Assembly (NCBI GenBank): GCA_010093995.1
Contig: ML992511.1
Location: forward strand, 233,917 to 297,916
DNA from: Elsinoe ampelina
Lineage: Eukaryota
Length of the DNA stretch: 64,000 bases
Reading direction: 5' to 3'
The notes beneath the pieces were generated by a model. The model saw only the letters and a program-made list of their open reading frames with translations. It was not told the origin of the DNA and made no database searches. Made by a program: the position numbers and the translations under genes. Position 1 is the stretch's first letter; each line of letters begins with the position of its first letter. Below are positions 24,831-42,828 of this stretch, in pieces.

Positions 24831-25526
24831 AGACTGAACGTCATATTTTCCGGAAGGTGAAAAAGTCACGTGGCCTGCAATGGGGGTCCCCCTGCAAAGC
24901 CCCACCTTACATGCAGACAACATAGCTTCCCCACATGGAGGTGCTGGAAGTGATGACTTGCAACAAGCGTCCCTTGGTCCTAGGGCTCTACTCCTTGTGA
25001 CTGCTGGAGCGAGACACTTGTAATTACTATTGTGGGTCGACAGTCATACGTGTGATTGACCGCATACAAGACCTGACACCGAGAGGCCTCGTGATTGGAC
25101 GCGCTCCATTGCAGTCGAAGATGAGAAATTCGCAGATAACGAAGACTACTACGGTCCAGAAACGTCAGTGACTAGGGCTCTTTCACGAATACTGGCACCC
25201 AAATGGTGCTGGAGGTTGCCGAGTGTGCAGAGAGGGGTGCGACATCAAGCAAAGCCCTGCGAGGCCGAATCTTGCTGGTCGACTGCGTGATGCAGACAGC
25301 CAATCTTATCATGATCGTGGTGGGTAGCACGTGCTTCGGATCGGTCTTGTCTATAACCCCTGAAACGCAGATGGATGGTCAAGGTCGATATGTCACCCCT
25401 CCTTGACATCGCTAATGATGGGCACCCAAGCACCTTCGTGCCGGGGTCAAAGCTTTACATTTCCTTTGAAAGTTGGCTCCTGATAGTCTCTCAACTCTCA
25501 AGCACAACTTTCTCGTCCTTGAAAGG

Positions 25527-27980
25527 ATGAAGTGCGATCGACGGACTGCCATCATGGTTCAAGACCTTGCAGCACAAATCGAAGCGAGTCGCAAGTCTCG
25601 GCTTCAGAATCCTTTGACAGAAGGGTGGGATGGCGCTAAGCTCTGTGGTATCCTGAGGACTCTGGATGCACTCAAAGAAGGATGGAATAAAGCGCCACTG
25701 CTTGCATTCTCTCCAGACTACGACAGTACCGCGCTCGACGTGGTAGCCGCCATGCAGGAAACGGGTATCTTCCGCTTCAATAACGGTATACTCATGCCAG
25801 AAGATAAGCCCGGTAACTGGCCTTTCCACCTGAAAGACTTTGAGCGGCGTGCCGTGGTAGCGAAAGGTGCTAGGGTAGGGCTAAGTCCCGAAGAGGTGAC
25901 AGGATACGTGTGTGGGGCCAGTGAAGCTCACCAATACTGCATACGCGCGGTGCGCGACAGAATTCTCCAGCAGGCACCAAATGCTAAAGTGACACTGCTG
26001 AGTGGGCAAAGAGCGCATAGCGGTGTTGGAGTTACTGCCGAGGTGCTGGGAATGCCACATGTGCGGGTGAAATGCAACTCGTCGGGATCGATGCGACGGG
26101 ATCACCTGGACGAAACGCTCCGAGGGATCAGCAGTGCCGTCATTGTAGTGGTGACATGGGCAAATGTCGCGGGTGGCGGCTACGACGATGCTCGTGCCGT
26201 AGCAGAGAGAATGGAGGAAACCAGACGGCGCACTTGCCTACCAGTATCACTACATCTCGATGCCAGCCGTTGCTTCGACGACGTTACAACCATGAGCGAA
26301 GCCCAGCGAGAGGAGCTTGGACTTCCAGAGGTCCGGATGAAAGATTGTGGGCCACACGCAGTGAAATTCGACACGATCGCAGCTGGTGGCGTCACACTTG
26401 GTGGGATGGGGACGGAGCTCGTCGTGGCACTGAATAATCAGAACAACGTTGGACACGGCTCTTACGTTGAGTATATCGCTGGCCACGACAGTACCATCTC
26501 CGGTTCTCGGGATGCCCTTTCTGGTGCTATGGTCGCTTTGCATGAAGAGTGGTTCGTGCAAGCAAAGGTCAACAGTACATACGATAGGCGCCGACGACTT
26601 CGAAGAGAGTTGATGACCGGCCTGGAAATTCTAGGCATTCCTCTCCGGTACGATAAGATAGGACTGGATGTCGTTCTCGGACCCCACCCACGGTTACCAT
26701 GGGAGATACTCGATATTTGGGGCGCACGCTTGCTCGACGACGGTTCAGCCATGCTGACTGTCAATTCAGCGGCCAACGAAGATACGGTCCGTTCATTGAT
26801 CCACTCGTTCGAATCGAATCAACCCCCACAGTCCCATGACGTTGATGTGGCGAAAAGCGTAGCTCGACCCCATGTGGTCGACATCATGCTTGAACGGCTT
26901 CGAAAGACGGCAGAGCGCTGGAGACTGCAGGCCGTTCGCTCGTGTGGCTATCCTGGGAATCACTCGACGCTTTCATTGCTCGGTCCAGTTGTAGGACATG
27001 CTCTTAGCTCGCCCATACCTCGCAAGTGGTTGGATGATAAGGCTCGAGCGCTATTGAAGGATACCTGCACAGCCCTTGAAGTGGCAGATCATTCTCAAGT
27101 TAGGGCAGCATTTACAACTGGGAGTACCGCAAGCAATCGCGTTGGCATACTCACGGCGCTTCGAAAGTATCCTCATGCTTGCGTGTACACGTCACAAGCC
27201 GCCCATTACTGCGTCGCCAAGATCATGTCTGATGTTGGGCGGATCTCGCACCTGAAGACGATCGCCACCGACGCCCTCGGCAGGATTAGACCCGAAGCAT
27301 TTGCGATGCAACTGGAGCTGGATCAGCTATCGGCGAAAGCAAAAGGCGTACCATCAGCCTCGATACTCGTGGCTAACTATGGGACGACATTCATGGGAGC
27401 TACTGATGATATCGAAGCTCTATGCGAAGCTTCAGAGGCGGTAGGATGTTCGATAGATCACATCCACTTAGACGGGGCCCTCATGCTGGGAGCAGACATG
27501 TCGAGGTACACGCTTGGTCCGTCCCGCAAATCCCCGCGGGATCCCGACACTGGTCGCTTGGTCGTTCAAGGGATATCTGCCAGTCTGCACAAATTCCCTG
27601 GATTATCTGTCGCAGGTCAGGTTGTGTGTTGGAAGCCAGTCAATGGTAGACTCGTGGCGAACGACGAAAGACTGCAAGCGAAACACATTGTGGAAATGTG
27701 GATCTATAACCAGCTCGTGTCTCCGGAACAGTCTCGAATGCTCTATGATCATTGCTTGAACCTTGCGCGCAGGCTGCGGGAGCGATTGGAGCACGGCGGT
27801 CGACGATTGTTGTATAATCCGGAGTCTATCGTTACAGTCCTGGAACGTCCTCCGGATTGGGTTGTTGAGAGATATAATTTATCCGCGCAGGGTAAATGGG
27901 CACACTTCATAACGATGCCGCATGTTAGCGAGGCTGTTGTGGACGAGTTCGTTGCTGTTGTGAGCAGATGCACAATTTAA
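25527..27980 (+). CDS. Tandem two-domain group II PLP-dependent decarboxylase (histidine/serine decarboxylase-like)
   Basis: Intronless ORF, open from 25473, first ATG at 25527. Domain 2 has GYPGN, TTGSTASN, AHYCVAK, NYGTTFMGATDD, HLDGAL and SLHKFPG. Domain 1 has FNN, GYVCGASEA, AHSGV, YDD, HLDAS and VEYIAGHDSTISGSRD. Confidence 0.8.
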   Translation: MKCDRRTAIMVQDLAAQIEASRKSRLQNPLTEGWDGAKLCGILRTLDALKEGWNKAPLLAFSPDYDSTALDVVAAMQETGIFRFNNGILMPEDKPGNWPFHLKDFERRAVVAKGARVGLSPEEVTGYVCGASEAHQYCIRAVRDRILQQAPNAKVTLLSGQRAHSGVGVTAEVLGMPHVRVKCNSSGSMRRDHLDETLRGISSAVIVVVTWANVAGGGYDDARAVAERMEETRRRTCLPVSLHLDASRCFDDVTTMSEAQREELGLPEVRMKDCGPHAVKFDTIAAGGVTLGGMGTELVVALNNQNNVGHGSYVEYIAGHDSTISGSRDALSGAMVALHEEWFVQAKVNSTYDRRRRLRRELMTGLEILGIPLRYDKIGLDVVLGPHPRLPWEILDIWGARLLDDGSAMLTVNSAANEDTVRSLIHSFESNQPPQSHDVDVAKSVARPHVVDIMLERLRKTAERWRLQAVRSCGYPGNHSTLSLLGPVVGHALSSPIPRKWLDDKARALLKDTCTALEVADHSQVRAAFTTGSTASNRVGILTALRKYPHACVYTSQAAHYCVAKIMSDVGRISHLKTIATDALGRIRPEAFAMQLELDQLSAKAKGVPSASILVANYGTTFMGATDDIEALCEASEAVGCSIDHIHLDGALMLGADMSRYTLGPSRKSPRDPDTGRLVVQGISASLHKFPGLSVAGQVVCWKPVNGRLVANDERLQAKHIVEMWIYNQLVSPEQSRMLYDHCLNLARRLRERLEHGGRRLLYNPESIVTVLERPPDWVVERYNLSAQGKWAHFITMPHVSEAVVDEFVAVVSRCTI

Positions 27981-28039
27981 GATTGCCTTGTTGCGTGAGT
28001 ATAAAGGCAAACGCTGTAAAGTGACAATGTTAAGTTGTG

Positions 28040-28205
28040 TGTAGGGGGGAAAAGCATTTATTACTACCTAATCCACCAAAATTAGGTAGATTATAAATAG
28101 TTTACTATACTATGATACCTTTTTTTTAGCTTTAAAAATTAAGTAATTAACAACAATTACGACTACAATCTATCTAGACTTCTGGCTAGCTAAATTTTAG
28201 TAATG
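28040..28205. repeat. Short AT/TpA-rich relic (RIP-like) downstream of the decarboxylase
   Basis: Abrupt AT-rich patch containing the 9-bp inverted repeat CTACCTAAT..ATTAGGTAG. Confidence 0.45.
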
Positions 28206-28796
28206 CAGCGTCGACAACGATCGCGCCAAGCCTGGGGGTGGCTCGTTTGAACTGAAAAGCCCTGTATACCCCGCGCTCCGCACGTTTTAGATGACAGCAT
28301 TCCCCACACGATGCAGGCCTTACCCAATGACAACAGCCACGGTCTTGGAGCTTGTTCTTCACTACTTCTAGCGCCTTGCCGGTTGAAGCTTTGCTCGCGC
28401 CGATCCTACCAGCTCTGCAGCTCTATACTCGTTCCCAGCAGACCAGACAACGTCACACCGTGCACCGCGTCGGCATTTGACAGGCTCTCTGACTCTACGT
28501 TACGGAAGTAGCTCGGAGGCATGGCCGAAGGTTGCTGAACAAGCAAAAGATCAGCCCCAGTACTCGGTCCGACTGGTACTATGGTTCTAGCTATGCATGA
28601 TTCCGTCTCGCTAGTAGCGCAAAAGAAAGTCTACCAGTGGGTACTGCCCATCGCTCCGACGAAGGAAGTCAGAGGGAAGAGCTTTGAAAAGATTTTTTGA
28701 AGTACAAAAGGTGACCTCACCTCGCTGTATGTAAGTCGGGAGATCAGCATCGATTCTACATTCTTCTCTTCCTGCTTCTACACCATCACGCAAATC

Positions 28797-30425
28797 ATGG
28801 CTCCATACACTGTCCTCGGGGGCATTGTCACCCTCGCCTCTCCTGCTGCTGCTTTCTTGACCAATGGATTGGCGGTCACTCCTCAGATGGGATGGGTAGG
28901 TCTCCATCCTCGGCCAAGTACTACAAGCACTGACCCCTCGCACCAGAACAACTGGAACACCTTCGGCTGCGACGTCAGCGAAGACCTGCTCGTCAGCACC
29001 GCCCGCACCCTCGTTGACCTCGGCCTCCGCGATACAGGCTACAACTACGTAGTCCTAGACGACTGCTGGTCCGAAGGCCGCTACCCTAATCGCACCCTCC
29101 GCCCTGACTTCCGCAAGTTCCCCAACGGCATGGCGCACGTCGCCAACGCCATCCACAACCTCGAAATGAAGTTCGGCATGTACTCCTCCGCGGGAAAGTA
29201 CACCTGCGCACAATACGAGGGCTCCCTCGGCTTCGAGAAGGAAGACGCAAGCACCTGGGCCTCATGGGGTGTAGATTACCTGAAATACGACAACTGCTAC
29301 AACGAGGGCCAAACAGGCAACCCCCAGACGACTTTCAACCGCTACGCCGCCATGTCCCGCGCCCTCAACGAAACCGGCCGACCTATCCTCTACTCCATGT
29401 GCAACTGGGGCGAGGACGCGCCGTGGGCTTGGGCACAGACGATTGCCAACTCCTGGCGGGCGACGGGGGATATCACGGATAGCTTCGACAGGCCGGATCC
29501 GAGGTGTCCTTGTACGGGGGATGAGGGGTATGATTGTGTTCTGCCGGGGTTTCACTGCAGTATCATGAATATTTTGAATAAGGTGGCGAGTTTTCCCAGT
29601 AAGGCCCAGCCGGGGGCGTGGAATGATTTGGACATGCTGGAGGTGGGGAATGGGGGGATGAATGATGTGAGTATAATCTATCAGCTGAGAATTGCTACCT
29701 ACCCCTGAGTGAGCAAAATCGGAGTGAGCAAATCTGAAAAATGCTCCGATCACTTTGAAAGTTCGCTGGCTGACCCTACACCCTCACAGGAGGAGTATAA
29801 GCTACACATGACTGCCTGGGCGGGCCAGAAATCGCCCATGCTCATCGGCTCGGACGTCCGCAAGCTCTCCCCATCAGCCTACAGCATCTACACCAACCCC
29901 GCCATCCTCGCCATCAGCCAAGACCCCCTGGGCAACGCCGCCGTGCGCCGCTGGCGCTACTACGTCCCCGAGGTCGACGAGTACGGCCAAGGCGAGATCA
30001 GCCTGTGGGTCGGCAACCTCTGGGCGGACAACACGCTTGTCATCCTCCTCAACGCAGGCAACGTCGACCGTCTCATGCACACGTCCCTCGCGGAAATCTA
30101 CTACGACAACGGCGCCGAACGCTCCACGCAGGCTCAGCGCTCGTACGACCTCTTCGATCTGTGGGGGAACCGCATGCCGAATGCCACGGCGGAGCAGGTT
30201 TTGAATAGTAACTCGACAGAAGGCGTGGCTGATTTGGGGAATTATTGGTTCAATGCTACGGCGAGTACTTACGCGGACGCGCTTGCTAGGAATGATAGTT
30301 TGGTCTTGGGTAAGCAGGTGGGTACTGTGGAGGCGCTGGGGACGATTTCGGCCATGGTGCCGAAGCATGGGGTTGTGGCTTATAGGTTGAGGCCGGTGAG
30401 GGGAGCGGTGAGGGATGAGTTGTGA
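28797..30425 (+). CDS. Alpha-galactosidase, glycoside hydrolase family 27
   Basis: Signal peptide; introns 28896-28946 and 29667-29789. TPQMGW|NNWN, LDDCW, DYLKYDNC, SWRATGDI, WNDLDMLEVGNGG. Ends in RDEL. Confidence 0.95.
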
Positions 30426-30429
30426 GGAA

Positions 30430-30481
<52 letters not shown>
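30430..30481 (+). repeat. Poly-G homopolymer of about 52 nt
   Basis: Uninterrupted G run starting 5 nt after the GH27 stop codon. Confidence 0.9.
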
Positions 30482-31199
30482 CGTTATGATGTTATGATTT
30501 AGGTAGGGGGAAAAAGTGAATGTAATGTGTTTGCATAGTAAAGGGTGTGGTGTCGGGTAGTGCACTTCGGGTCGGGGATGGGGGAGGATAATGGGCATTG
30601 CACGGCTCACAGTGATGTCTTCATGAGCGACACTATGCAGACCATCAATGAAGTATGAGTTACGATTGAGATGTGTCGTTGGATCAAATGAGCATAGAAG
30701 ATTGCTCCATGGAGGTGGCTGGTTCGCCGTTGGACCCTGCACCGGACTAGATTGGAAATTGCTGAGCGGCTGGTAGTTTCAAGTACCTCGGCTATGAGTC
30801 TGGGACGAGCAAATGAATCAGATGTCAATTTCATGTCGAGCTTGAGACTGTGATCATGTCATTATTCGATAAAGAGGAGATGAAAGTGACAAAGCCATTT
30901 CAAAGCCATTTCACATGCTCGGCAAAGTTCCCCACTCGAACCAGGGCGGATCAATGCCGATGCCGCAAGCCTCTCTTCCGAATGCCGTTGACGTTTCTTC
31001 GGGCCAGCATCGAGTGGTTGCATCACTAAGCAGGACCCCATTAAGTTATTCCCTTCTCCCACGGCCGAACACTTTCTCAGTCATTCGGAAAGTCCGTCAC
31101 TGCCATTGCTCACTACCACGTCTTGTTTCCTCACCACACAACCCAGCATACCATGTCCCGATAGCGACTCTTCCACTCCCGCGAACCACCAATCCCACA

Positions 31200-39882: not shown

Positions 39883-42828
39883 GGGGCCGTCTCCTTCGTC
39901 GAATTTGACCGGTTTTTTGTGCTCGATTAGGAAGGTGTAATAGATGACCGATTTACGTATCCTTCGATAACTAATAGTTAGTCTTCTAGTAGCGCTTTTA
40001 ACTAGCTAGACTAACTCGATAGCCTAATAGAGTAAGGTTAGCTTATTAAGGCTAGTTATTTATACTTACTCTCGTAATTGTATATATAGATAACTAGTCT
40101 TTTTACTAGTCTTAGTAAACGCGTAAGTAAAAGCCTTATATAATACCTCTTAAGAAGTACTTTATCTACCTCCTCTACTACTCTCTCTACTACTCTCTCT
40201 ACTACTACAATTATAACCTTAATAGCGCTACTAGCTAGCTAGCTAACCTTCTAAGTAACCTCTATAGTGTTATTAACGCTAGTGCTATAGCGATTTAATA
40301 GTAGCTAGACTAAAGACATAGTCTCTATATTCCTTAGTTTCTTAGTAAGGGAAAAGACTACTAGTAAATAAGCTTAATTTAGCTTTAAGGCTATTACCTT
40401 TTAGTAGGCTATACTAATTATTATAGTAGTAATACGGCATATAGAACCTAGCGATATAATAGAAGAGAAGGTTTATAATAAGTATAGAGCTTTAAAGGGG
40501 AATTAGTTAAATTATAAAGCGCTTTACTACTAGTCTAGTTAGATAATAGATAGTAATAGTATACTATATACTAAGCCTTATATAATAGAGAAGTACTTTG
40601 TCTCTTACGCTAGCGCTTAAAAATTTAAATACTATAAATTTAAGTAGCTAGATCTTAGTAATAAGCTTTAGAGTAATATTATAGCTAGTAGTAAGTATAC
40701 TCTTACTTCTTCTAATATATATAAGGTTAGTAAGAAGAAGAAGAAGAAGAGAGAGGTACTATAGACAGTAGAGGAGTTAAATAGGCCTATAAAATTTAGC
40801 TAGTCTCTAAGCCCTTACCTTATATAGCTACCTTTAATACTAGTAGCCTTCTTATATATAGGTATACTAGTAAGCTTAATTATTCTAAATAAGAGGTAGA
40901 AGATAGATAAGGTAAACTAGACAATATAAGCTATTCTTAATGTAATAAAGAGGTTAAATAAGATAGCTAAAAGGCCTTTAGCTATTACTTATATAACTAC
41001 TAAATTTACTAAGGAGTTTACTTATCTTATACTAGCGATAAAGGTAAAGGCTTTACTAGCCTTAAAAGAGGTAGTAGAGTACTAGCTTAAGTTAGATAAA
41101 GGTATAAGATATAAGCTTATAAGTAAATAGACTAACTTACTACTTATAATACTTATTAAAGATAAGGTAGATAGAGAGGTATAATAGAAGAAGAAGAAGA
41201 ATAAAGAGCCTTTATAGCTTAAAGTTAACTTCTTATATAACTATTACTCTTATAGACAGGTAGTAAGGTTTTTTTTATAGCCTCTTTAATTCTTTATACT
41301 TACTTATAACCTTTATTATATATTTAATTTAAATATAGAAGCTACTAAACGATTGTTAAATAACTAAAAACTATTATTTAATTATACTATATCGTTTACT
41401 ACTCCCTTCTATCGACCTTAGTGCTACTATAGCTTAAGCTAGTAGTTATACTATATATTCTTAGCTATCTTATTATAATATTTAACTATATATATATTAT
41501 CTAAATTTAGCTCCCCTTTACCTATTAGATAGCTAATAGGCTTAGAGATCTTCTTCTTCTTCTTCTTCTTCTTCTTCTTCTCCTTAAGATAGATAGATAT
41601 CTAGATACTTAGTAAAAGGTTATAAAGTATAGCTAGATAGTATACTATTTACACCTATGTAAGTATTAAAGGAAACTTAAATTACTTATCTAGTATCCGC
41701 TACTATCTCTTAAGTAATCTAAAGCTTCTTTTAATAATATTATAGAGTTATAAGTAGTATAAATTAAAGAGCTCTTTTAGACTTTAAGGCTATTAGTTAG
41801 TAGCCTTATATTTATAGAAGTAGTACCTTATACCTTAATAGAGCACTAAGATATTAATCCGATTACTATATCTAGTATTAGCGAGATAATAAGCACCTTC
41901 TAGAGTAGAGAAGCTCTTAGTATAAGTATTAGTAAGTACTTAAGTATTATATATAGATCTCTCCTATTCTAGTAATAGGTAGATAAACTTTATCTTATAG
42001 TTTATAACTACTAATACGTTCTATAATAGGCTACCTTTTTAATTCCTCTAAGCTAATTACTTACTAAGAATATAAGCGTAGATATAAGTGCTATTAAGAG
42101 CACTAATATAGCTTTAGAAGTAAGGCTAAAACTTACAATTTATCTAGATATCTAGTAGCACTTAGAGTAATATAATTAGCACTATATATTTGTTATATAA
42201 AGAGAAGAGACTTTATAAGGCTTAATAGAAGAATTAGCTAACTATTTAAATAACTATACTAACCTTAGTAGTAATGTACTAATAGCTAGCGCTAGTAGTA
42301 AGAATATAGAGAGTAATAAAGAGCTTATAGTAAGTAAGTAACTTATAGCTATTATTAAGAGCTAGAGTTATTATTATTAAGCGCTTATAGAGATAGTAGA
42401 AGAAGGCTACTATACACTATATATATTACTTATAGTTCTTATTAACCTTAATACTCTAGTTAATCTAGTTAAGGCTAAAGCCTTAAGTATTAAGCCAATA
42501 GTTACTAGTAATCCCTAGAGGCTTATATATGTCCTTTAACTATGTAAGTAAAGTACTAGAGAGAAGACTAGTAAGAAGTATATGTAATTAATTATCTATA
42601 ACTACTTAATTTAGTATACTAATCTTGTTAGTATAGAGTACTATAACCTTACGTTCTATAGCAATACTAAACACAACACTTGCGTAACTTCTTACTGCCT
42701 TCCTTAGCTATAAGAGTGTCTTAGCTCTGTCTCTTAGCCTCGGCCGCTACTAATTTTACACTTTTTACACTAATTACGCTAAAAAAGACTAGCTCCACTA
42801 AAACACCAAGATCGAAGGAGACGGCCCC
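39883..42828. mobile_element. PIF/Harbinger-type DNA transposon, RIP-inactivated
   Basis: Perfect 16-bp TIRs GGGGCCGTCTCCTTCG / CGAAGGAGACGGCCCC with TAA on both sides (39880-39882 and 42829-42831). Interior is extremely TpA-rich, CpA/TpG-depleted and has no ORFs. Confidence 0.88.

Follow-up and report, generated by a model that had tools for sequence, protein, structure and literature searches.

We describe here a gene of the fungus Elsinoe ampelina whose product, a protein of 808 residues, joins two serine/histidine-decarboxylase-like units in a single chain. The gene lies on the forward strand of a stretch of 64,000 nucleotides, hereafter the window (contig ML992511.1 of GenBank assembly GCA_010093995.1, positions 233,917 to 297,916), and coordinates below are those of the window. 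A preliminary description, drawn up from the DNA letters, had proposed that duplication and fusion produced an intramolecular pseudo-heterodimer with one composite active site. Our results favour this reading, to which we attach a probability of roughly 0.7, namely that the protein is a single-chain pseudo-heterodimer with one composite site which decarboxylates an amino acid. The support is computational and comes from a reciprocal residue pattern present in 23/23 informative homologues, from one-sided conservation and from two structure predictors.

In fold-type-I enzymes dependent on pyridoxal 5′-phosphate (PLP), each active site is built from two subunits and the enzymes are for this reason obligate dimers. 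In the mechanism that we propose, two such units (group II, serine/histidine-decarboxylase-like) would pack together like the subunits of an ordinary homodimer. Unit 2 would supply the PLP pocket, with Lys680 forming the Schiff base, His679 and Gly523-Ser524-Thr525 at the phosphate, His551 stacked on the ring and Asp640 at the ring nitrogen. Unit 1 would provide a mobile catalytic loop in trans, Tyr307 of which would donate a proton to the decarboxylated intermediate, and Ser318 of its SGSRD sequence would bind the PLP phosphate, also in trans. The mirror site, composed of a unit-1 pocket with Gly-Gly for His-Lys and of a shortened unit-2 loop, would have decayed. What is expected is one PLP per 808-residue chain and the decarboxylation of an amino acid.

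Two homologous units in one transcribed reading frame

Both units are complete and homologous to the serine/histidine decarboxylase group, and their resemblance is not by chance. Profile-profile alignment of the unit-1 and unit-2 families (hhalign) gave a probability of 98% and an E value of 2.9e-13 over 303 aligned columns. The NCBIfam histidine decarboxylase model matched unit 1 with an E value of 3.6e-13 (model positions 55–359 of 382) and unit 2 with 1.1e-27. Unit 2 was matched by phmmer to chains of tea alanine decarboxylase and Arabidopsis serine decarboxylase with E values of 7e-18 to 4e-15 (7.2e-18 for 8jik) and to Photobacterium histidine decarboxylase with 2e-11, and the family profile found 8jij among PDB sequences at 2.1e-34 (HMMER). 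Superposition by VIA-align on solved group II enzymes showed that both predicted units fit the decarboxylase subunit of fold type I with its three domains, with Z of 31–33 and a root-mean-square deviation (rmsd) of 2.3–2.5 Å: unit 2 (438–808) on Arabidopsis serine decarboxylase 8jg7_C with Z 33.2 and 2.3 Å over 344 residues, and unit 1 (29–423) on tea alanine decarboxylase 8jij with Z 31.4 and 2.5 Å over 363 residues. Between them, at residues 422–439, the AlphaFold2 model has no secondary structure and a predicted local distance difference test (pLDDT) of 70–74. Thus one reading frame does hold two complete group II units as first described, and the profile match and the superpositions bear out the duplication-fusion. 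Alignment of the halves to Pfam Pyridoxal_deC, which had also been envisaged, had a divided outcome: the whole protein passed the gathering score of 27 (35.2 bits, E value 7.4e-09, two stretches) and each half alone fell below it (14.4 bits for unit 1, 23.6 bits for unit 2). Among the ESM Atlas matches we found ordinary histidine-decarboxylase-family clusters and nothing else.

An open reading frame (ORF) runs without interruption on the + strand from 25473 to 27980 (835 aa), with TTG as first codon. We placed the start at the ATG at 25554 rather than at this TTG because the database gene model P0002 (808 aa, 100% identical to the window protein) and the N-termini of the homologues, which align there, point to it. 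Residues are numbered on the 808-aa protein, residue n beginning at nucleotide 25554+3(n-1). Transcription was examined in three public runs from two studies. Their contigs skip the two GT..AG introns (28894>28946 and 29666>29790) of the neighbouring alpha-galactosidase gene, and on this basis alone the runs, which no record lists as RNA, were treated as holding spliced RNA. A single RNA-derived contig of 2188 letters spans 25515–27690 with no gap and no difference, running from unit 1 through the linker and into unit 2 beyond Lys680, and further RNA contigs extend to 27978. As the contig is continuous over both units, the fusion is transcribed as one unspliced message, in agreement with the ‘intronless’ frame of the preliminary description.

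At the 3′ part of the gene, an RNA contig of run X2 omits 56 bases at 27606–27663. Their ends read CT..AC on the + strand, which corresponds to GT..AG for a transcript of the opposite strand. In run X3 a loose end of 12 letters starts at 27663, which is also a boundary of the X2 gap, and run X1 reads through uninterrupted. The skipped bases encode the conserved residues directly after Lys680 and their number is not a multiple of three. The gap has the appearance of spliced antisense RNA across this region, not of an intron belonging to the gene itself.

Catalytic residues and their conservation

Among solved enzymes, those closest to both units in sequence and in fold are Arabidopsis serine decarboxylase (AtSerDC, 8JG7), tea alanine decarboxylase (CsAlaDC, 8JIK/8JIJ) and the Gram-negative histidine decarboxylase of Photobacterium phosphoreum (7ERU/7ERV). 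These enzymes are homodimers of chains of ~370–480 residues, with two equivalent sites, and the Lys and the trans loop are both present in each chain. Their motifs S-x-H-K, H-x-D-A, GTT..DD, YPX and the loop E-Y...D-x-T-I-x-G-S-R each occur once in the window protein, in which, unlike in them, two units are fused and these features divided, with one site expected per pair. The Schiff-base Lys is found in one unit of two, in S677-L-H-K680 of unit 2, and unit 1 reads T-I-A-A-G-G at its place. Unit 1 keeps V-E-Y307-...-D312-S-T-I-S-G-S318-R-D, and unit 2 has equivalents of all the cis PLP residues (K680, H679, G523-S524-T525, H551, D640 and T612). The motif positions of the preliminary description were all recovered (Table 1). 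It had also described unit 2 as devoid of the VEY..D.T..GSR segment. The Tyr loop and GSR are indeed missing; the segment is not wholly absent, since one part is deleted and another degenerate: hhalign placed an 8-residue gap opposite GSYVEYIA of unit 1, and the diverged GRLVANDERLQAKH stands opposite ...DSTISGSRD. The same division was seen when 8jij (deposited as serine decarboxylase) was aligned to the family profile by HMMER, its residues 98–253 and 313–390 falling on unit 2 and its loop 269–305 on unit 1.

The roles of the equivalent residues are given in a structural study of the plant enzymes (PMC11407765). In CsAlaDC, the contacts of PLP within the subunit are Lys309 (Schiff base), His308, Gly169 and Thr170 (phosphate), His196 (stacking on the ring), Asp277 (pairing with the nitrogen of the ring) and Thr247 (O3); Ser347 of the adjacent subunit binds the phosphate, as does its AtSerDC counterpart Ser352 on the PLP of the neighbour. 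The catalytic loop of one monomer enters the site of the other, where Tyr336 (CsAlaDC) or Tyr341 (AtSerDC) is the proposed proton donor. Y-to-F mutants of this residue in both enzymes gave almost no product, and the loop was disordered in the CsAlaDC crystal (PMC11407765). Action of the loop across subunits, as the preliminary description had it for homodimeric relatives, hence holds for the loop Tyr and for the Ser of GSR. The unit-1 loop has a Tyr-to-Ser spacing of 11, equal to that of CsAlaDC. Since what unit 1 has kept corresponds to the trans-acting residues of the nearest solved enzymes, a composite site, with Tyr307 and Ser318 reaching into the unit-2 pocket, would account for the division.

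Two features differ from the plant enzymes. Residue X of their YPX motif sets substrate choice, with Tyr for Ser and Phe for Ala (PMC11407765). In unit 2 X is Gly, which matches neither characterised plant enzyme; across the family X is L in 10, G in 8, V in 3, F in 3, D in 1 and I in 1 of 26 rows, and unit 1 reads W89-P90-F91 at this place. The C-terminal zinc finger of the plant enzymes (3 Cys and 1 His in a 17-residue loop; PMC11407765) is missing from unit 2, of which residues 726–808 hold two Cys (734 and 806).

Table 1. Positions in the window of the two-unit gene, its parts and the motifs discussed in the text
Feature	Position	Strand	Remarks
Likely coding sequence of the two-unit protein	25554..27980	+	808 aa and stop; from database gene model, homologue N-termini and RNA contig
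Unit 1 (residues 1–423)	25554..26822	+	complete serine/histidine-decarboxylase-like fold without Schiff-base Lys; 8jij superposition, NCBIfam match
DTIAAGGVT, unit 1	26370–26396	+	in place of the S-x-H-K region
Gly278-Gly279, unit 1	26385..26390	+	at the His-Lys place of S-x-H-K, inside DTIAAGGVT
Catalytic-loop segment VEYIAGHDSTISGSRD, unit 1	26466..26513	+	Tyr307 at 26472–26474, Ser318 at 26505–26507
Linker (residues 424–437)	26823..26864	+	unstructured, poorly conserved
Unit 2 (residues 438–808)	26865..27977	+	serine/histidine-decarboxylase-like, full PLP-binding residue set; 8jg7_C superposition, 8jik match
Y466-P467-G468, unit-2 YPX motif	26949..26957	+	
G523-S524-T525, unit 2	27120..27128	+	equivalent to the phosphate-binding Gly-Thr of solved enzymes; conservation 1.00, 1.00, 0.94
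GTTFMGATDD, unit 2	27381–27410	+	
HLDGAL, unit 2	27465–27482	+	Asp640 at 27471–27473, equivalent to the Asp pairing with the PLP ring nitrogen
SLHKFPG, unit 2	27582–27602	+	
S677-L678-H679-K680, unit 2	27582..27593	+	Lys680 (27591–27593), predicted PLP Schiff-base lysine
Unit-2 catalytic-loop counterpart (residues 694–712)	27633..27689	+	8 residues shorter; without loop Tyr, without GSR

We then examined how these residues are kept in homologues. A word-indexed search gave nine two-unit homologues (31–49% identity, 890–1070 aa), and an exhaustive profile search gave 1771 proteins at E values up to 0.001. At the top of the latter stand about 25 representative clusters, which are two-unit proteins or their fragments, and the remainder are ordinary single-unit relatives. 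Where named, the sources of the family are Pezizomycotina: Boeremia, Fusarium, Dactylellina, Arthrobotrys, Diaporthe, Aspergillus pseudonomiae, Caloplaca, Trypethelium, Curvularia, Lasiosphaeria and Xylaria. Residues were counted in 28 aligned rows (P0002–P0029, including fragments); identity and per-residue conservation were taken from the 16 full-length rows, the 12 fragmentary ones being left out.

The column equivalent to the Lys in unit 1 contained G in 24 rows, S in 1 and K in none (25 rows filled of 28), and D312, Ser318 and Arg319 were present in 26/26 filled rows. In unit 2, Lys680 and His679 were likewise found in 26/26 filled rows, with D640 and H638 invariant. All 23 rows in which the three key columns are filled combine a residue other than Lys in unit 1 with Ser318 and Lys680, so that homologues with the reciprocal pattern do exist. 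No equivalent loop was detected in unit 2: besides the 8-residue deletion, G[ST]R occurs in 0/26 rows of the loop counterpart. A Tyr can be read somewhere within 690–713 in 16/26 rows, mostly in the strand right after the Lys, at the position of Trp693 and outside the loop (string reading).

The strongest argument is that, of the two pseudo-symmetric sites, a single one is maintained, that made of the unit-2 pocket and the unit-1 loop, because both of these are invariant and their mirror counterparts variable. In the unit-1 loop, conservation is 1.00 for D312, G317, S318 and R319 and 0.94 for D320, versus 0.19–0.69 in the mirror stretch 701–709 of unit 2. Conversely, it is 1.00 for G523, S524, S677, H679 and K680 of unit 2, versus 0.25 for S123, 0.19–0.44 for 282–287 and 0.38 for H155 in the mirror pocket of unit 1. 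The unit-1 stacking His is retained in the window protein's own subclade alone (8/22 filled rows).

The mean pairwise identity of unit 1 (37.5%) is below that of unit 2 (44.2%) and well above that of the linker region 426–454 (18%), and the most conserved 20-residue stretch of unit 1 is the one with the loop. Unit 1 is thus under purifying selection and does not evolve neutrally. This also bears on the suspicion that tandem paralogues were mis-joined by assembly or annotation, or that the gene is a decaying pseudogene. Split models are found in the databases, as in Lasiosphaeria miniovina, where the two-unit gene is filed as adjacent models of 466 aa (P0033) and 329 aa (P0173, partial), versus a single model of 995 aa in its sister species L. 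ovina; short ‘unit-only’ entries can hence be annotation artefacts. Against the suspicion stand the open frame of 835 codons, the RNA contig unbroken over the junction, the recurrence of this fused order across many fungal genera, in about 25 representative clusters, and the identity of unit 1 compared with the linker. Such an origin is extremely improbable, and refuted as far as sequence data can go.

Stand-alone units without the Lys were sought among the 73 single-length proteins of the representative hits, shorter and longer length classes lying outside this search, and none was found; four of the 73 have no exact x-H-K, yet the Lys is kept as Y-K, Q-K or D-K.

Two further observations concern the database entries of the family. 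A C-terminal extension of ~110–310 residues follows unit 2 in 8/9 first-round homologues (P0003, P0005–P0011); P0004 has 47 residues there and the window protein none. The extension matched no Pfam family. A downstream exon encoding it was looked for by tblastn of the tails of the nine homologues against the window: the best E value was no better than 0.09 and no match fell in 27980–28800; the window protein thus simply has no such extension. The P0014 cluster contains two-unit proteins filed as Mycobacterium kansasii and M. persicum, the contigs of which measure 9.5 and 2.8 kb. These proteins fall inside the fungal clade, with the Aspergillus sequence as neighbour in the unit-2 subtree, and look as if fungal DNA had contaminated the bacterial assemblies, not like products of a bacterial gene.

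Predicted packing and the P-protein precedent

The single-chain AlphaFold2 model has a mean pLDDT of 90.3 and a predicted template modelling score (pTM) of 0.92; the relative placement of the two units in the model is therefore confident. The Tyr loop (301–310) has a pLDDT of 55, as expected of a mobile catalytic loop. With unit 1 and unit 2 submitted as separate chains, the pair scored 0.90, versus 0.00 for the best of three controls; in calibration the score mark was reached by 51/78 solved complexes and by 2/108 mismatched pairs. At least 75% of the contacts, about 275 in number, agreed between the two-chain runs, with a partner pLDDT of at least 81. A failure of the halves to pack as a dimer would have spoken against the proposed reading; in both predictions they form a pseudo-symmetric dimer. 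The interface is pseudo-two-fold symmetric, bringing together 64–96/466–493, 120–124/522–526, 156–166/552–562, 282–287/677–686 and 312–337/701–730, and the N-terminal helices of unit 1 (21–62) pair in it with 435–463; an N-terminal helix ‘clamp’ is described for the plant enzymes (PMC11407765). Interface residues are more conserved than the rest in unit 1 (0.548 vs 0.475, p 0.011) and in unit 2 (0.603 vs 0.545, p 0.034). Residues 312 and 315–320 (SGSRD) of unit 1 and residues 522–526, 677 and 679 of unit 2 are all listed as interface members, not as touching pairs. The presence of SGSRD in the predicted interface together with G523-T525, S677 and H679 is as would be expected if Ser318 binds the phosphate in trans.

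These data also bear on a pairing of like with like, in which each unit of one chain would meet its own counterpart in a second chain, unit 2 working without a loop and unit 1 being a scaffold or a regulatory pseudoenzyme. Ordinary members of the family are homodimers, which agrees with such an arrangement (PMC11407765). However, it leaves unexplained both the invariance of the unit-1 loop and the decay of its unit-2 counterpart, the loop Tyr is required in the plant enzymes (PMC11407765), and both predictors pair unit 1 with unit 2. We regard it as very unlikely.

Searching with the whole model by Foldseek, we observed that the best 11 matches were chains of the glycine decarboxylase P-protein (human, Neanderthal and Synechocystis), with the E. 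coli protein at rank 16. These matches cover 926–984 columns at 11–12% identity with a TMq of 0.55–0.61, versus 0.36 for single-unit matches, and so both halves were co-aligned with the P-protein. In some bacteria the P-protein halves are separate alpha and beta subunits. A study of the P-protein describes its N-terminal (113–472) and C-terminal (531–906) regions as structurally homologous fold-type-I domains, with PLP on Lys754 in the C-half of the human protein and Gln at the Lys position in the N-half (PMC7259800). The window protein resembles it in having one chain, two homologous fold-type-I halves and the Lys in the C-terminal half alone. Hence the design of one chain forming a pseudo-dimer with a single PLP site was already known, a precedent which the preliminary description had overlooked. 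By sequence profile, however, the window protein does not classify as a P-protein: PF02347 (GDC-P) was matched neither by the whole protein (E value limit of 1) nor by the halves (limit of 10), and no P-protein was among the 38 PDB sequences matched at E values up to 0.01. The P-protein hands its product to lipoyl-H-protein, whereas the window units are each closest to ordinary serine/histidine decarboxylases, and the mark of the fungal family compared with the P-protein is the Tyr/Ser loop retained in the dead half. A fused group II decarboxylase with two units was found described nowhere in the full-text literature covered, including the accessible part of a preprint on fungal Pyridoxal_deC proteins, subscription journals being outside this coverage.

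Several observations weigh against a composite site within one chain that decarboxylates an amino acid. Residues 301–311, with the proposed proton donor, lie outside the confidently placed contacts, and the packing may owe its confidence to homodimers of the decarboxylase family that are already solved and remembered by the predictors. The rmsd to the P-protein is high (8.3–11.3 Å) and the best 50 VIA-align entries by Z, all single-unit, include no P-protein, an absence which is uninformative on the architecture. The proposed proton donor is not universal: of 26 rows, the Tyr307 column has Y in 19, C in 6 (P0003–P0006, P0016 and P0027) and M in 1 (P0019), and the four homologues closest to the window protein have Cys. 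Judged from the alignment, either these members may carry out a different chemistry or the Tyr may be less essential than in the plant enzymes. H234, D236, R239, F241 and D242 are invariant in the dead pocket of unit 1, which pure decay of the pocket leaves unexplained. For the suggestion of the preliminary description that regulation or new chemistry may have become possible at a freed dead site we found no support, much of the lining of this pseudo-site being poorly conserved though these five residues are invariant. Finally, the substrate cannot be guessed from the neighbours of the gene in the window, among which no pathway or cluster is evident: a GFA-family protein, glutamate-cysteine ligase, alpha-galactosidase, GTP cyclohydrolase II, an F-box protein and a P450 fragment.

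The predicted packing fits equally a head-to-tail pairing between chains, in which unit 1 of chain A would meet unit 2 of chain B and two composite sites would be formed. The residue pattern and its conservation suit that arrangement as well as the intramolecular one, and the two-chain prediction, made with separated halves, is compatible with both. In contrast, AlphaFold2 closes the pseudo-dimer within one chain, at the pTM given above and over an unstructured linker of 14–16 residues, and the P-protein precedent has both homologous halves in one chain (PMC7259800). We consider pairing between chains quite unlikely and that within one chain the probable arrangement.

The same architecture could otherwise serve another reaction, such as decarboxylation with oxidative deamination (aldehyde synthase) or other PLP chemistry, or have a binding role without catalysis. 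Chemically the group is versatile, as plant serine-decarboxylase-like enzymes include acetaldehyde synthases and aromatic amino-acid decarboxylases (PMC4177580); the loop residue is Cys or Met in 7/26 family rows, and in those members the chemistry may be altered; and the window protein scored 140.5 bits against the histidine decarboxylase equivalog NF002748, under the curated cut-off of 305. On the other hand, it retains Tyr307, and none of the PLP-pocket residues given for the solved decarboxylases is missing from it (PMC11407765). Another reaction thus seems unlikely to us for the window protein, for which we favour decarboxylation of an amino acid.

Other fused relatives, neighbouring features and significance

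Outside fungi, the same order of units and the same reciprocal pattern were observed in uncultured bacteria, at locus L001 of an Omnitrophota metagenome-assembled genome and in P0052, P0055, P0125 and possibly P0104. The L001 ORF (4799–8440, 1213 aa) has bacterial neighbour genes (pilin-like, DUF7305, response-regulator and MoxR/DUF58/BatA genes), uninformative on function, and contains GSR at residue 452 alone and S-x-H-K at residue 796 alone. These bacterial proteins differ from the fungal ones in several respects. Their unit 2 is nearer to canonical histidine decarboxylase (523 bits for the L001 ORF against the equivalog model), their unit 1 is also without the ring-nitrogen Asp, P0052 reading H-I-H-Y-S-M-S, and they carry other extensions, with extra N- and C-terminal regions in the L001 protein. 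In P0055, a partial relative of the latter, residues 747–844 after unit 2 gave a weak Methyltransf_11 match (E value 0.006), which hints at a possible decarboxylase-methyltransferase pairing in bacteria. A metagenome scan with the family alignment returned five loci, one of which (L003, 4.8 kb) holds a two-unit relative; in another (L004) the match lies in a single-unit ORF of 395 aa.

In a mixture-model tree of 98 rows, the fungal unit-1 and unit-2 sets each formed one clade (support 100) with matching inner groupings, which speaks for a single fusion at the root of the fungal family, after which the two halves co-evolved. The bacterial units fell in clades of their own, not joined to the fungal units, with deep nodes unresolved, and the two units of P0104, the composition of which is odd, were sisters (support 95). 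In an approximately unbiased (AU) test on 47 rows under LG+G4, holding fungal and bacterial unit 2 together was not rejected (p-AU 0.198), and in the same LG+G4 analysis the fungal unit-1 and unit-2 clades joined, flagged as long branches meeting. Given this p-AU and this flag, one origin and several cannot be told apart.

A different situation was observed in the alga Picocystis, where P0048 and P0171 contain two histidine-decarboxylase-like units with motif strings identical letter for letter, both with S-G-H-K and the loop. A tandem fusion of very recent date may explain this, as may an artefact of isoforms or of assembly; a real fusion would represent the fused form before any decay.

A tentative scheme, which we find possible though doubtful, is that of a repeatable ratchet acting after fusion: one site would decay, in every case leaving the Lys in the C-terminal unit and the loop in the N-terminal one. 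It would have acted independently in Pezizomycotina, in the Omnitrophota-like bacteria (L001, P0052, P0055 and P0125), perhaps in a third lineage (P0104) and, long ago, in the P-protein. As part of the same scheme, the fungal unit-1 pocket (His234, Asp236, Arg239, Phe241 and Asp242) might be a site for a regulator or a second ligand.

Three other features of the window were recorded. The alpha-galactosidase gene (Melibiase_2 and Melibiase_C) occupies 28797–30425, with introns at 28895–28945 and 29667–29789, both confirmed by RNA contigs of the three runs. A simple repeat at 30419–30493 corresponds to a long poly-Pro run in a - strand ORF (30380–30742). An AT-rich block with sharp edges covers 40001–42000, with a GC content of 0.28 versus ~0.54 elsewhere, and the following 2 kb have 0.44.

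The family constitutes a natural experiment on the two-subunit rule of fold-type-I enzymes: the fusion is conserved and each catalytic element survives exactly once, divided between the halves. It would offer a single-chain, single-site group II decarboxylase in which the trans loop could be studied free of the symmetry of a homodimer. It would also show the P-protein architecture a second time, in a family for which sequence profiles detect no link to the P-protein, which makes the two comparable. Lastly, the about 25 representative clusters, annotated so far as ‘pyridoxal phosphate-dependent transferase’ or ‘histidine decarboxylase’, are marked out as a distinct family.

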